A DNA stretch of 64,000 bases, from positions 60,070 through 124,069 of the forward strand of contig CAKUXV010000001.1 of assembly GCA_934700895.1 (NCBI GenBank). Direction: 5' to 3'. Origin of the DNA: an uncultured Bacilli bacterium. GTDB taxonomy: Bacteria; Bacillota_I; Bacilli_A; RFN20; CAG-826. A program made the translations under genes and the position numbers. The notes under the pieces are model-generated. The model was not told the DNA's origin. It saw only the letters and a program-made list of their open reading frames with translations, and ran no database searches. Position 1 is the first letter of the stretch. Every line of letters begins with the position of its first letter. Of this stretch, positions 1,632-58,368 are shown one piece after another.

Positions 1632-3608
1632 ATGAAAGAAGAAAAACAATTTAAAACCGAGTCCAAACAACTTTTGAACTTGATGATCAACTCCATTTAT
1701 TCGAATAAGGAAATCTTTCTTCGCGAATTGATTTCTAACGCGAGCGATGCGATCGACAAATACCGTTTCCTTGCTGTTTCTAGCGAAGGGAAATATCCAA
1801 CGAAAGACCACAAGATTTTCCTTTCGGCCAATAAGGACGAACGTTGGCTTCAAGTCCAGGATAATGGTATCGGCATGTCCAAAGAAGACCTCGAGAACCA
1901 CCTTGGCACGATTGCCAAAAGTGGAACCAAGGAATTCTTGGAGAAGATGAAAGAAGCCAAAGACAAGAAGGAAGACGTCGATTTAATCGGTCAGTTTGGC
2001 GTTGGTTTCTATAGCGCCTTCATGGTGGCGAAAAAGATTGAAGTCTACACTAAGGATTTGGAAGGCAACGCCTATAAGTTCTCAAGCGATGGCGTAGAGA
2101 CCTATACGATTGAAGATGATCCAAATAGTTTCTTGCCGGATTCCGGCTCGGCGGTTCGCGTCTATTTAAAAGACGACGAAGAAGACGAGAAGTATTCGAC
2201 CTACCTTGAAGAATGGACCCTTTCTCGTTTGGTGAAGAAATATAGCGATTTCATCCGTTATCCGATTCAACAAAAGGTGAAGAAATCCGTCCAGGACGTC
2301 GACGCGGATGGCAAGCCCATCAAAGACAAGTATCACGATGAAGAAGTGATCGAGACGCTTAATTCGATGGTTCCGTTATGGAAAAAAGCAAAAAAAGACG
2401 TCACGGATAAAGACCTCAACGAATTCTACAAGAATCGGTTCAACGATTACGAAGACCCGATGTTAGCGATGAATATTAAGGTCGAGGGAACCTTGGAATA
2501 TAACGCGCTTGTTTATATTCCTGCCCGCGCCCCCTATAACCTCTATTCTCAAAACTATGAAAAAGGCTTGGCTCTTTATGCCAAGGGAGTCTTCATTGAG
2601 GAGAAAAACAAAGAACTCGTCCCCGATTACTTGAAGTTCCTCCGTGGTTTAATCGATTCCGAGGATTTGCAGTTGAACATCTCCCGTGAAATGCTTCAAA
2701 AGAATCCTTTGCTATCGAAGGTAGCCAAAAACATTGAAAAGAAGGTCGTCGACCGTTTGATTCAATGGAAGAAAGAGGATTATGAGAAATACCTCGAATT
2801 CTGGAAGGAATATGGATCCTTCATTAAGTTCGGCATCTATAGCTCCTATGGAATGAAGAAGGAAGAACTTCAGGATCTATTGGTCTTTGATCATCTAAAT
2901 GGGGATAAGCCTATTTCGTTAGACGACTATAAAGCCGCTTTGAAGGAAGGGCAAAAGACCATTTGGTATGTCTCGGGAAAGACGATTGAATCGCTGAAAA
3001 TGCTGCCGGAGATGGCTAAATACCGTAAATCTGGGGAAGACGTGTTGCTTTTAACCAACGACATCGATGAATTCACTCTCCAAGCGATGCAGGAATTCAA
3101 AGAACTGTCCTTCAAGAACATCACTGCGGAAGATAAAGAATCCTTAAGCGAAGAAGAGAAGAAAGAAATCGAATCCTTGTCGACGGAACACCGTCGCTTC
3201 TTGGATGACGTGAAGTCTGCTTTGAATGGAAAAGTGGATGACGTGGATTTCTCGTTGCAGCTCGAAGATGCGCCGGTATCGATCTCGACCAAGAATGGCT
3301 TAAGCATGCAGATGGCGAAGACCCTTAATGAGAATCCGGAGACGGATGCTCATCCAGAAGAAAAAGTCCAAGCTCAAAAGGTTTTGAACATCAACCCGAA
3401 CCACCCGTTGTTTAGAAGCCTTGCCAATGTGACGGACGAAAAAGAAATCGCCGCGGTCGGACATTTGCTTTACGATGAAGCGATGCTTGCCGAAGGGTTT
3501 GAAATCGAAGACAAAGCCGAATTTGTGAAAAACTTGAACGCCTTGTTCGAGAAAGCCTATCCAAGCAACGAAAAAGAAGCGATTGTCGACGAAGACAAAG
3601 AGGCTTAA
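1632..3608 (+). CDS. htpG: Molecular chaperone HtpG (Hsp90 family)
   Basis: 658 aa. It carries the N-terminal GHKL ATPase signature ELISNASDAIDKYRF and has Hsp90 middle and C-terminal domains. An AAAAGGAG ribosome-binding site (RBS) precedes the ATG. Confidence 0.95.
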   Translation: MKEEKQFKTESKQLLNLMINSIYSNKEIFLRELISNASDAIDKYRFLAVSSEGKYPTKDHKIFLSANKDERWLQVQDNGIGMSKEDLENHLGTIAKSGTKEFLEKMKEAKDKKEDVDLIGQFGVGFYSAFMVAKKIEVYTKDLEGNAYKFSSDGVETYTIEDDPNSFLPDSGSAVRVYLKDDEEDEKYSTYLEEWTLSRLVKKYSDFIRYPIQQKVKKSVQDVDADGKPIKDKYHDEEVIETLNSMVPLWKKAKKDVTDKDLNEFYKNRFNDYEDPMLAMNIKVEGTLEYNALVYIPARAPYNLYSQNYEKGLALYAKGVFIEEKNKELVPDYLKFLRGLIDSEDLQLNISREMLQKNPLLSKVAKNIEKKVVDRLIQWKKEDYEKYLEFWKEYGSFIKFGIYSSYGMKKEELQDLLVFDHLNGDKPISLDDYKAALKEGQKTIWYVSGKTIESLKMLPEMAKYRKSGEDVLLLTNDIDEFTLQAMQEFKELSFKNITAEDKESLSEEEKKEIESLSTEHRRFLDDVKSALNGKVDDVDFSLQLEDAPVSISTKNGLSMQMAKTLNENPETDAHPEEKVQAQKVLNINPNHPLFRSLANVTDEKEIAAVGHLLYDEAMLAEGFEIEDKAEFVKNLNALFEKAYPSNEKEAIVDEDKEA

Positions 3609-36931: not shown

Positions 36932-37090
36932 TGAAGAGGCTTCAGGGCGACGAGAATTACGTCGACTGGCGGTATAGCCCGCGAGCCGAAAGGCACGATT
37001 TGGTGAAATTCCAAAGCCAACGGTACAGTCCGGATGGAAGAAAGCGCAGAACGATGTTTTGCCTCTGGAGCGTATGCTTAGGAGGCTTTT
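36932..37090 (+). ncRNA. FMN riboswitch (RFN element) with an RBS-sequestering expression platform
   Basis: The conserved RFN blocks are present: CUGGCGGUAUAGCCCGCGAGC ... GGUGAAAUUCCAAAGCCAACGGUACAGUCCGGAUGGAAGAAAG. They parallel the B. subtilis ribD leader (CCGGCGGUA...AGCCCG...GGUGGAUUC...AAGCCGACAGUGAAAGUCUGGAUGGGAGAAGG). GCCTCT at about 37061 can pair either with the P1 5' strand AGAGGC or with the RBS AGGAGGC. Confidence 0.8.
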
Positions 37091-53690: not shown

Positions 53691-53775
53691 GCACTGGTGG
53701 CGGAATTGGTATACGCGCTAGTCTCAGGAGCTAGTCGGGCAACCGGTGTGGGTTCGACTCCCATCCAGTGCACCA
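53691..53775 (+). tRNA. tRNA-Leu (anticodon CAG)
   Basis: Acceptor stem GCACUGG/CCAGUGC, anticodon loop CUCAGGA, long variable arm, T-arm GGUUCGACUCC, and an encoded CCA (ACCA at the 3' end). Confidence 0.85.
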
Positions 53776-56355: not shown

Positions 56356-57087
56356 TTAATCGTGACGGCGAGGGTCATCGAAGGTTTCGGAAAAACGCGC
56401 GGCAAAAGAAGGTTCTAAACCCGCTAAATCGAGATGGGGCGTTCCTCCGAATTGGTTCATGCGGAAGCTTGCAATACCTTCTCGCCGCTCTTCGGTATAA
56501 AGAGAAGTAATCGAGCTAGGAACCGCACACGTCCCCTGCCAAAAGGTGACGGGGCTTGCGTTTAATAAATAGGAAAGCATCACGCTTTCTACTCCGAAAT
56601 GGCAGAAGAAAGCGATGGTTTGTTGGTTCCCTTTTTTGGTTTCGAAATGGTGATTGACTTTACGATATCCGTGAAGGTTCAAAACGCTTTCTAGCCCTTT
56701 GCAAACTTCTTCGTACTGTCCTTTTAAATCCTTACTTTCTCGGTAAAAAGGCAAAGACTCCATCCATCGAGAAGGATCAAAGCAAGCATCTCCCCCTTGT
56801 TCTAAGGTAGAAGGGAGGATATCCCAACTGATGTGGGTGCTATCGTGAGGAGCCAAAGCGCGGAATTCGCGTAGCCAATCTAAAGTCATTGGCTTCACGG
56901 AAGTCCTGCTTTCTCTTAAATAGGGTTCCAACGTCTTTTGGGCACGCCCTAAAGGAGAAACGTAAATCGCATCGATGGGGGTGTTTTTGAGGTATTTAGC
57001 CAGGGCATTAGCCTCTAATTGGCCCTGTTTGGTAAGCCCATCGATTTTGTAATCGGGGTCCGCGTGACGAAGGATTAAAATGCGCAT
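56356..57087 (-). CDS. Histidine phosphatase family protein (phosphoglycerate-mutase-like)
   Basis: N-terminal RHG-type motif MRILILRHADPDY ... G with a catalytic His, and a later SP.GRA motif. 243 aa. Confidence 0.8.
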   Translation of the reverse strand: MRILILRHADPDYKIDGLTKQGQLEANALAKYLKNTPIDAIYVSPLGRAQKTLEPYLRESRTSVKPMTLDWLREFRALAPHDSTHISWDILPSTLEQGGDACFDPSRWMESLPFYRESKDLKGQYEEVCKGLESVLNLHGYRKVNHHFETKKGNQQTIAFFCHFGVESVMLSYLLNASPVTFWQGTCAVPSSITSLYTEERREGIASFRMNQFGGTPHLDLAGLEPSFAARFSETFDDPRRHD

Positions 57088-57152
57088 AGAACAATCATAG
57101 TCGTTTTATATTTTGCTAAAAAGGGTTTGACCGTTATTTCTGGTTGCTCTAT

Positions 57153-57300
57153 GCTTTTGCTGCTTGAGGGAGTAGTCGTCGCCGCAAGGCGAGACCCGGC
57201 CAACAGCACTGCCTTCTCGAATCGGGAAGCCTGGCCTGTCTTCATTGACGAGACTTGAGCAAAGGCGTTTTGGCGCCTTTGCCCGGTCCCGTCTTTTTTG
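57153..57300 (+). ncRNA. Candidate yybP-ykoY-like (Mn2+) riboswitch leader preceding the cation antiporter gene
   Basis: A sigma-A promoter (TTGACC-17-TATGCT at 57127-57155) starts a 170-nt leader containing CUUGAGGGAGUAG (compare the yybP-ykoY GGGGAGUAG loop). A P1 candidate CUUUUGCU/AGCAAAGG brackets the element. The P1 3' strand overlaps a downstream hairpin GCAAAGGCG-uuuugg-CGCCUUUGC followed by a U-rich tract. Confidence 0.4.
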
Positions 57301-57330
57301 GTTCCGGGCCACCATGAGGAGGTACATTGT

Positions 57331-58368
57331 ATGTGGTGGATTTATCCGGTCTACGCCCTGGATTTAACGGCGATGATCGTCTTAGCTTTCTGGCTAGGAA
57401 ATTTGGTCGACATGCTAGATAAGAAGACGAAAGTCTCGGGAGCTTTTATCGGTGGCGTGTTGCTGGCCGCGGTGACTTCGCTTCCCGAACTATTCACGGC
57501 TCTTTCCGCCGTCTTTATTGTCAATGAGCCCGAATACGTCGTCGGCGATATTTTGGGTTCTATTATTTTTAATTTGGTTGTTTTGATGCTAGAAACCGTG
57601 ATGTTCATTAAGAATTTCAGGAAATCGAACGTCAAAAAATTCCACGTTATTAACGGAATCTTCTGCTTGGCGATGTATGGATTCGCCGCCTATGCCTTCT
57701 TCGCGCCGAAAGAATGGCAATTGATGCTAGGCGACATCAACTTTGTCAGTTTTTTGATTCTCGGCCTTTACGTCGTTTCTCTTATCATCCAGCCCAAGGA
57801 AGAACAAAAAGAAGAAGTCAAAGAGCAGGTTAGTTGGAGTTTAAAGAAAATCATTACCTTATTTGTCTTCTGCTCCATCGGTTTGATTGGAACTTCGATT
57901 GCTTTGACTTATCTCACCAAAATGATTCAAGAAGCCCTTCCTGCTTTATCGGGTTCTGTCGCAGGGGCCTTGCTGCTTGGGGTTGGAACTTCGATCCCCG
58001 AGGTCATTTCCACGGCTCAACTCTTCAAAAAGAAGAACTACGATGCCGGGATCGGCAACATGGTCGGATCCTGCACGTTTGACTTTGCTATCTTCGCCTT
58101 CGCTGACTGCGTGTCGTGGCATCCTTACAACAATCACGTGGATGCCTCGGGCGAATTCATCATTTCTCAGCGTGGCCTTTATATTGCTAGTCCTGATGCG
58201 ATTCAATTCGAAATCTATGGAGCGATTGTCTGCACTTTGGTGACCGGTTTCTTGGCTTTGAAGGTCTTTGCCCCTTTATTAAATAAGTGCAAAGGATGGA
58301 CCATTGCTTTGAGCAGCGTCACCGCGGCCGCGTGCCTTGCTTTGTATCTTGTAATCTTCTTCTTTTAA
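57331..58368 (+). CDS. Cation:cation antiporter of the CaCA family (YrbG / Na+:Ca2+ exchanger-like)
   Basis: Two alpha-repeats: GAFIGGVLLAAVTSLPELFT and GALLLGVGTSIPEVISTAQL. About 10 TM helices. GGAGG RBS before the ATG at 57331. Confidence 0.8.
   Translation: MWWIYPVYALDLTAMIVLAFWLGNLVDMLDKKTKVSGAFIGGVLLAAVTSLPELFTALSAVFIVNEPEYVVGDILGSIIFNLVVLMLETVMFIKNFRKSNVKKFHVINGIFCLAMYGFAAYAFFAPKEWQLMLGDINFVSFLILGLYVVSLIIQPKEEQKEEVKEQVSWSLKKIITLFVFCSIGLIGTSIALTYLTKMIQEALPALSGSVAGALLLGVGTSIPEVISTAQLFKKKNYDAGIGNMVGSCTFDFAIFAFADCVSWHPYNNHVDASGEFIISQRGLYIASPDAIQFEIYGAIVCTLVTGFLALKVFAPLLNKCKGWTIALSSVTAAACLALYLVIFFF

Follow-up and report, generated by a model that had tools for sequence, protein, structure and literature searches.

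A probable three-way-junction yybP-ykoY Mn2+ riboswitch upstream of a CaCA-superfamily transporter gene in an uncultured Bacilli bacterium

The window analyzed here, a stretch of 64,000 nucleotides of contig CAKUXV010000001.1 from an uncultured Bacilli bacterium, carries a gene for a transporter of the Ca2+/cation antiporter (CaCA) superfamily, preceded by a promoter, a structured leader with an intrinsic terminator and a ribosome-binding site (Table 1). The leader element at positions 57162-57260 is read as a yybP-ykoY Mn2+ riboswitch that lacks helix P4, forms a three-way junction and acts as an ON switch in front of a putative Mn2+ exporter; the probability given to this reading is roughly 0.85. 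A yybP-ykoY-like Mn2+ riboswitch had been proposed at this locus from the sequence alone (the original prediction), and the proposal is borne out by an intact L1/L3 core, by covariation in all helices, by a model built from relatives that reaches the validated Escherichia coli mntP and alx riboswitches, and by a gene context dominated by MntP and P-type ATPases.

Table 1. Coordinates of the promoter, leader elements and regulated gene at the riboswitch locus (window numbering)
Feature	Position	Strand	Details
Sigma-A/sigma-70-type promoter	57127-57155	+	-35 TTGACC 57127-57132; 17-nt spacer; -10 TATGCT 57150-57155
Aptamer, yybP-ykoY/Mn2+ type (probable)	57162-57260	+	Loops, covariation, model matches
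P1.1 5′ strand GCUUGAG, switch helix	57162-57168	+	Pairs with 57254-57260; 5 of 7 pairs change on both sides (62 sequences); helix 94.5% paired
L1 5′ strand GGAGUA	57169-57174	+	Invariant in 16 of 16 CaCA-linked loci
P1.2 5′ strand GUCG	57175-57178	+	Pairs with 57246-57249
P2 hairpin UCGCC-GCAA-GGCGA	57179-57192	+	5 of 5 pairs with changes on both sides
Left leg: P3.1, L3 bulge and P3.2 hairpin	57198-57236	+	Covariation, 62 sequences
P3.1 GGCCA/UGGCC	57198-57202/57232-57236	+	97.6% paired; every pair changes on both sides
L3 bulge ACAGCAC, 7 nt	57203-57209	+	Closed by GCCA/UGGC, compare consensus GUCA/UGGC
P3.2 hairpin	57210-57231	+	95.1% paired; every pair changes on both sides
Single-stranded linker UGUCUUCAU	57237-57245	+	At the place of P4 in four-way-junction members
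P1.2 3′ strand UGAC	57246-57249	+	Alignment, covariation
L1 3′ strand GAGA	57250-57253	+	Invariant; same in E. coli mntP (GGCGAGACC)
P1.1 3′ strand CUUGAGC	57254-57260	+	Common to aptamer and terminator
Intrinsic terminator	57247-57299	+	Fold; 19-bp interrupted stem 57247-57293 (-27.3 kcal/mol) and UUUUUU 57294-57299
Ribosome-binding site GAGGAGG	57316-57322	+	8 nt before ATG; read from sequence
CaCA-superfamily transporter gene, 345 amino acids	57331-58368	+	Start ATG 57331; two Na_Ca_ex repeats (PF01699, E 1.1e-27); alpha-repeat motifs VTSLPE and GTSIPE

Related loci were collected in two ways. Searching representative genomes with the transporter protein as query yielded 30 loci, which belong to uncultured gut Bacilli ('Mollicutes'/RF39-like, Candidatus Enteromonas and Erysipelotrichaceae metagenome-assembled genomes). 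In 15 of these 30 loci, from 15 genomes besides that of the window, the conserved element lay directly upstream of the orthologous gene, as it does in the window, resulting in 16 CaCA-linked loci. A metagenome scan using the pattern GGGAGTAGT-N(14-44)-CAACA-N(25-55)-ACGAGACTT, which holds three invariant blocks, returned at least 120 loci, all of the same architecture. The samples of 62, 85, 105 and 108 elements referred to below consist of relatives, including those among the metagenome matches listed. Model R1 was built from 14 CaCA-linked sequences only and was used to align 62 elements, from which model R2 was built. In the resulting alignment, 95.2% of cells pair, versus 74.0% in shuffles and 18-48% when the partners were slid, and 22 of 25 pairs change on both sides, so that all five helices (P1.1, P1.2, P2, P3.1 and P3.2) are supported. 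For P1.2, three of the four pairs change on both sides; in the RNAalifold alignment of the 16 loci, one of its pairs is C-G in 8 and U-A in 8, and another is G-U in 14 and C-G in 2. RNAalifold independently recovered P1.1, P1.2, P2 and P3.1. Covariation supports a multi-helix junction with two legs in its three-way form, P2 being present and P4 absent; no P4 hairpin can form in the linker (fold energy 0). An extended P2 (GUC-G-UCGCC...GGCGA-GAC) replacing P1.2 was rejected, as the extension fails in L022 and L024 and P1.2 (GUYG/YRAC) shows exchanges. This longer pairing could serve as an alternative in the ligand-free state.

The nucleotides left unpaired by these helices correspond to the core of the family. 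The sequence GAGGGAGUAG, earlier singled out as close to the hallmark loop, is present at 57166-57175, and the 5′ strand of L1 matches both the RF00080 consensus GGGGAGUAG and E. coli mntP exactly. The motif CAACA is invariant in the 16 loci that were found via the protein, independently of that motif. Within L3, positions 1 and 3 are A, while positions 4-7 vary within the family, for which the reported consensus is ACAUACU, its third A being absolutely conserved (PMC12153347). An 'invariable AGA' has likewise been described in the L1 3′ strand of Streptococcus members (PMC6649816). The RF00080 consensus is laid out as UUGGGGAGUAGCcg followed by P2 and, further on, by GUCA, ACAUACU, P3.2, UGGC and P4, and E. 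coli mntP continues with AGG-CGAGAC-C after P4; the window shares with this core the L1 5′ strand, the 3′ strand CGAGAC and the L3 closing context GYCA/UGGC. Published work assigns roles to two L1 guanines, an A-minor adenosine, a first L3 adenosine that stacks and a discriminator adenosine, absolutely conserved, whose N7 makes contact with Mn2+ (PMC6754395, PMC12153347). By position, G57169 and G57170 are presumably the metal-site guanines and A57171 the A-minor adenosine. By alignment, A57203 would be the first L3 adenosine, stacking on the A-minor adenosine, and A57205 is the predicted Mn2+-discriminating adenosine.

An independent test was provided by E. coli, which had no part in building R1 or R2. 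R1 ranked the mntP leader (L031, 5462-5558) first in 10 kb, weakly (12 bits, E 0.12). Because this match was too weak, the broader R2 was built. R2 matched mntP over its full length (31.3 bits, E 1.6e-6), P4 being absorbed as an insertion in the linker, and also matched alx (20 bits, E 0.0017); the two were the top two matches in 20 kb, all others having E>3. Both E. coli riboswitches (RF00080; PMC12153347) resemble the window element in L1 (GGGAGUAG...CGAGAC), in the L3 context (CA, then ACA..., then UGG) and in having P1.1 as switch helix. They differ from it in their junctions, mntP forming a four-way junction with P4 and alx a three-way junction without P2 in which P4 is kept, and in being mainly translational, whereas the window carries an intrinsic terminator.

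The promoter named in the original prediction (TTGACC, 17 nt, TATGCT) was found as described and was also reported by a consensus promoter scan (2 sites in 600 nt versus 0.4 expected). In 14 of the 16 orthologous loci, a promoter of the form TTGAC-N17-19-TAnnnT stands 7-8 nt ahead of P1.1, counted from the end of its -10 hexamer, so that transcription would start at about 57162, close to the first nucleotide of P1.1. The long-range helix put forward earlier as P1, CUUUUGCU (57154-57161) with AGCAAAGG (57258-57265), had to be abandoned. Both strings are present, but the helix lacks conservation, and most of it is located before the likely start: all 8 pairs form only in the window and the near-identical L001-L003, and 1-5 of 8 in the 12 orthologues at greater distance. 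The helix reaches into the -10 box and the nucleotides that directly follow, and because of this overlap and of the spacing between the -10 hexamer and the true P1.1, most of it is probably not transcribed. The switch helix with covariation support is GCUUGAG/CUUGAGC instead. The fold of the leader is more stable than expected by chance (z = -2.75), and its G+C content is 0.54-0.57, compared with about 0.45 in the flanks. The ribosome-binding site is not strongly sequestered when the leader is folded in its predicted read-through form.

Downstream of the aptamer, the earlier idea that a terminator shares the 3′ strand of P1, giving ON logic, held once transferred to the true switch helix: the 5′ arm of the terminator overlaps the 3′ strand of P1.1 in all 16 CaCA-linked loci, so that this half of P1.1 has an alternative partner in the expression platform. 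The hairpin first described, GCAAAGGCG/CGCCUUUGC at 57259-57282, exists, as does the T-run, but it is only the upper half of the terminator, and it is the full stem that abuts the T-run. A generic terminator scan did not list this terminator, because its stem is interrupted. In the window, its 5′ arm takes 11 of the 14 switch nucleotides (the 3′ strand of P1.2, GAGA and the 3′ strand of P1.1). Across the 16 loci, a hairpin of -14 to -34 kcal/mol abuts a T-run and holds 7-11 of these 14 nucleotides in its 5′ arm, the sequence of the upper stem differing between clades. The terminator fold of the leader was calculated at -57.2 kcal/mol versus -47.2 kcal/mol with P1.1 and P1.2 enforced, and because of this difference the default state is predicted to be OFF, that is, termination.

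The switch would operate as follows. RNA polymerase would start at about 57162 from the promoter upstream. Without metal, nucleotides 57247-57260 would be captured by downstream sequence, forming the terminator hairpin with its U-tract and stopping transcription before the gene. When cytoplasmic Mn2+ rises, an ion would be bound between L1 (GGAGUA/GAGA) and the L3 bulge (ACAGCAC, with A57205); the two helical legs would dock, P1.1 would be stabilized and the base of the terminator blocked, allowing read-through into the CaCA gene, whose product would most probably export Mn2+. The direction of the switch in vivo is presumably ON; for the family, read-through upon stabilization of P1.1 by the ligand has been demonstrated (PMC6754395, PMC6649816).

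A further pairing is predicted around the U-tract. In the read-through fold, GCCCGG, the 3′ arm released from the terminator, would pair with CCGGGC past the U-tract and enclose it (57282-57308, + strand). By eye, complementary arms also flank the U-tract in relatives (GCCCGAG...CUUCGGGC in L012, GCCCAAG...CUUGGGC in L028), which suggests compensatory changes, and a hairpin of this kind could help to lock the ON state.

Predicted termination by default also bears on another reading, in which the main role of the terminated transcript (57162 to about 57299, about 135 nt) is that of a small RNA acting in trans, as opposed to cis-regulation. The equivalent transcript of Bordetella pertussis was first catalogued as the small RNA BprK, but it was later re-read as a prematurely terminated riboswitch (PMC8546581), and the element always stands directly upstream of a transporter gene and in the same orientation. 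A primary role in trans is considered the least probable of the alternatives weighed here.

The gene under control encodes a CaCA protein, as had been anticipated, with two repeats recognized by the Pfam family Na_Ca_ex at the E-value given in Table 1. Because it scores below the cutoffs of TIGR00367 and the YrbG-type NCBIfam equivalogs, the transporter belongs to a divergent CaCA lineage; among solved structures, NCX_Mj comes closest (E 1e-6). For a census of what follows the riboswitch in relatives, the longest open reading frame starting within 400 nt downstream of each of 85 distinct sister elements was submitted to a Pfam scan. MntP was found behind 47 of them, P-type ATPases behind 14, Na_Ca_ex (CaCA) behind 10, GDT1/UPF0016 and OAD_beta behind two each, and TerC, CDF and FeoB behind one each. 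These downstream genes are the known Mn2+-riboswitch regulon. CaCA genes account for a minority of the associations, the 10 of 85 coming from a biased sample. At least three lineages can be told apart among the ten CaCA proteins, with the window, L043 and L050 as representatives. Proteins of the window type are 54-95% identical to the window protein, and because those of the L043 and L050 types are only 23-27% identical to it, the partnership between riboswitch and CaCA gene is recurrent.

This partnership has a characterized counterpart in B. pertussis BP3410 (PMC8546581), likened here by its published description. There, too, a yybP-ykoY element precedes a CaCA-superfamily gene with NCX_Mj as closest solved relative. 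In B. pertussis, Mn2+ relieves termination and induces expression, on which Ca2+ has no effect, and the protein works as an Mn2+ exporter. The host is a proteobacterium, and the element is detected by Rfam (E 8.5e-15), unlike that of the window, which Rfam 15 leaves undetected. The earlier suggestion that the antiporter handles Mn2+ is a reasonable one, not new in view of this precedent, and by analogy the substrate of the window transporter is most probably Mn2+, in the direction of export.

Five relatives carry, directly after the CaCA gene, a second aptamer of the family that drives a P-type ATPase of about 950 amino acids, forming a metal-efflux cluster with two riboswitches. The second aptamers lie at 4053-4149 in L006, 4047-4141 in L008, 4060-4156 in L009, 4053-4149 in L021 and 4060-4156 in L029. 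Their loops read GGGGAGUAA for L1 (GGGGAGUCA in L021) and GUCAGCACG for L3 (GUCAACACG in L029), with AUGAGAC as 3′ strand. By model scan, the window holds one copy only and no second aptamer. At L014, L015 and L019, which belong to the genomes of L002, L001 and L003, respectively, a second CaCA paralogue of about 63% identity occurs with no aptamer upstream; a model scan of all loci found no trace of the element upstream of this paralogue or of the more distant homologues. As only one of the two is under riboswitch control, the paralogues seem to have diverged in function.

The junction of the window element was compared with that of relatives and of characterized members. Among 108 distinct elements, 81 have P2 and lack P4, 17 have P4 and lack P2, two have both and eight are unclear, these counts being biased by the gap limits of the search pattern. 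In the elements without P4, the 3′ end of P3.1 and ACGAGAC lie 11-12 nt apart in nearly every case. At the turn position, 49 of 105 elements read UNAAA and 58 read UNAA(A/U); UUCAU stands at this place in the window and its closest relatives. The family is accepted to include three-way members, Streptococcus pneumoniae mgtA lacking P4 (PMC6649816) and E. coli alx lacking P2 (PMC12153347). The window is like S. pneumoniae mgtA in its three-way junction, with the legs P1.1-L1-P1.2-P2 and P3.1-L3-P3.2 and a linker for P4, in the invariant (G)AGA of the L1 3′ strand, in the terminator with U-tract of a transcriptional ON switch, and in its Bacillota host. It is unlike it in the linker, which is an invariant UNAAA in Streptococcus versus UUCAU in the window, in its L3 (ACAGCAC), and in the regulated gene, a P-type Ca2+/Mn2+ ATPase there versus a CaCA antiporter here. 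The P4-less S. pneumoniae aptamer is functional and activated by Mn2+, to which both read-through and in vivo induction mainly respond (PMC6649816).

Several points weigh against the identification as a yybP-ykoY Mn2+ riboswitch and have to be set beside the evidence above. Foremost, RF00080 gave no match in Rfam 15, neither in the whole window at gathering thresholds, where an FMN riboswitch and a tRNA were the only matches, nor in positions 57050-57400 (351 nt) with permissive filters at E<=10. The relatives from metagenomes were picked using a pattern derived from the window, making their shared invariant blocks partly circular, and the 62-sequence alignment was fitted to a model. At L3 positions 4-7, the window reads GCAC where the family has UACU as consensus, and the UNAAA turn found in about half of the P4-less relatives is missing from the linker; either deviation could alter affinity or selectivity. 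Finally, the substrate cannot be read from membership in the CaCA family alone, because a paralogous CaCA gene stands without an aptamer in the same genomes.

The first of these points was followed up using a positive control. The validated E. coli mntP riboswitch was itself not reported at the gathering threshold and reached 41.6 bits in the permissive search, versus a cutoff of 45 bits. RF00080 also missed all 20 sister elements tested, including ones directly before MntP, CDF and CaCA genes and before open reading frames of about 870-905 amino acids that read as P-type ATPases. The model in Rfam 15 is 177 positions in length; a long P4 is part of it, the closing helix P1 is not. Because the mntP control fell below the cutoff and all 20 sisters were missed, the negative result on the window was not accepted as evidence: it reflects low sensitivity of the model and is uninformative for membership. 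The original prediction had named absence of an RF00080 hit, along with that of Mn-dependent read-through, as refutation; the hit is indeed absent, but with Rfam 15 this is not a valid test. RF00080 of Rfam 15 under-detects this sub-architecture, a practical blind spot and a sensitivity issue worth reporting to curators, and three-way-junction Mn2+ riboswitches are probably under-annotated in gut Bacillota.

The leader might also be a structured 5′ untranslated region, a constitutive or protein-dependent attenuator that resembles an Mn2+ aptamer and senses no metal. In favor of this reading, the leader has no Rfam match, and its minimum free energy fold is the terminator form. Other metal or ion riboswitch families in Rfam (NiCo, M-box, Na+/DUF1646, Li+/nhaA-I and others) did not match the leader either, and the permissive matches were chance-level microRNA and small RNA families only (E>1). 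Nevertheless, the unpaired metal-site nucleotides are invariant while the helices covary, which is the signature of a ligand-binding aptamer and not of a generic hairpin attenuator; R2 cross-detects validated riboswitches, and the genes downstream are those of an Mn2+ regulon. A leader insensitive to metal is accordingly regarded as very unlikely.

The deviations in L3 and linker bear more on the choice of ligand. The same aptamer fold could be tuned in vivo to Ca2+, or to Ca2+ together with Mn2+, and control a genuine Ca2+ antiporter, which would make it a yybP-ykoY-derived calcium switch. The gene under control is a member of the Ca2+/cation antiporter superfamily and has a Na+/Ca2+ exchanger as nearest solved relative, the L3 tail GCAC and the linker UUCAU are off consensus, and the neighboring riboswitch-controlled ATPase in relatives is of the Ca2+/Mn2+ P-type kind. 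Furthermore, S. pneumoniae mgtA, the only P4-less member studied biochemically, has an affinity for Ca2+ about 30-50 times that for Mn2+ (dissociation constants of 1.7 μM and 54 μM, respectively; 50-fold according to the paper, PMC6649816). In the same system, however, read-through and in vivo induction are driven by Mn2+ and not by Ca2+ (PMC6649816), and the CaCA-linked riboswitch of B. pertussis answers to Mn2+, not Ca2+, in front of a CaCA protein that is an Mn exporter (PMC8546581). In the window, the discriminating adenosine predicted by alignment and both L1 guanines are intact, and the sister elements mostly precede MntP. Tuning to Ca2+ is considered improbable on balance, although it ranks above the other alternatives. 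Slightly less probable again is that the CaCA-linked subclade as such, with ACAGCAC and a non-UNAAA linker, has shifted to Ca2+ or integrates Ca2+ and Mn2+, which would amount to a natural calcium riboswitch with a true Ca2+ antiporter in uncultured gut Bacilli. The case for Mn2+ as the ligand is built on metal-site nucleotides that are intact, on the regulon census and on the S. pneumoniae and B. pertussis precedents.

Read as an Mn2+ riboswitch that turns on a putative Mn2+ exporter, the locus is a textbook case and adds little biologically; both the P4-less form (S. pneumoniae mgtA) and the partnership with a CaCA gene (B. pertussis BP3410) have already been published. What it does offer is a probable Mn2+-efflux function for a divergent CaCA lineage for which the annotation would otherwise read Na+/Ca2+ antiporter and which is widespread in uncultured human-gut Bacilli (RF39/'Mollicutes'-like, Candidatus Enteromonas and Erysipelotrichaceae metagenome-assembled genomes).

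Some sister elements stand before unexpected genes (L052, element at 83-187; L068, L085 and L041; L059 and L111). Based on crude calls of open reading frames, these genes encode an FeoA-FeoB fusion (834 amino acids), the beta subunit of Na+-transporting oxaloacetate decarboxylase (PF03977, two cases) and TetR-family regulators (two cases). Mn2+ efflux offers no obvious reason for an ON switch in front of an Fe2+ importer or a Na+ pump. L070 carries two aptamer matches on the same strand, at 3035-3143 and 3288-3394 and about 150 nt apart (R1, 56.8 and 40.2 bits, respectively), which could represent a tandem arrangement or two adjacent regulated genes. Elsewhere in the window, a complete FMN riboswitch (RF00050) was found at 36934-37049 on the + strand (83.4 bits, E 1.9e-17), and a tRNA of 82 nt with a long variable arm (RF00005, 55.3 bits) at 53691-53772 on the + strand, a few kb upstream of the riboswitch locus.

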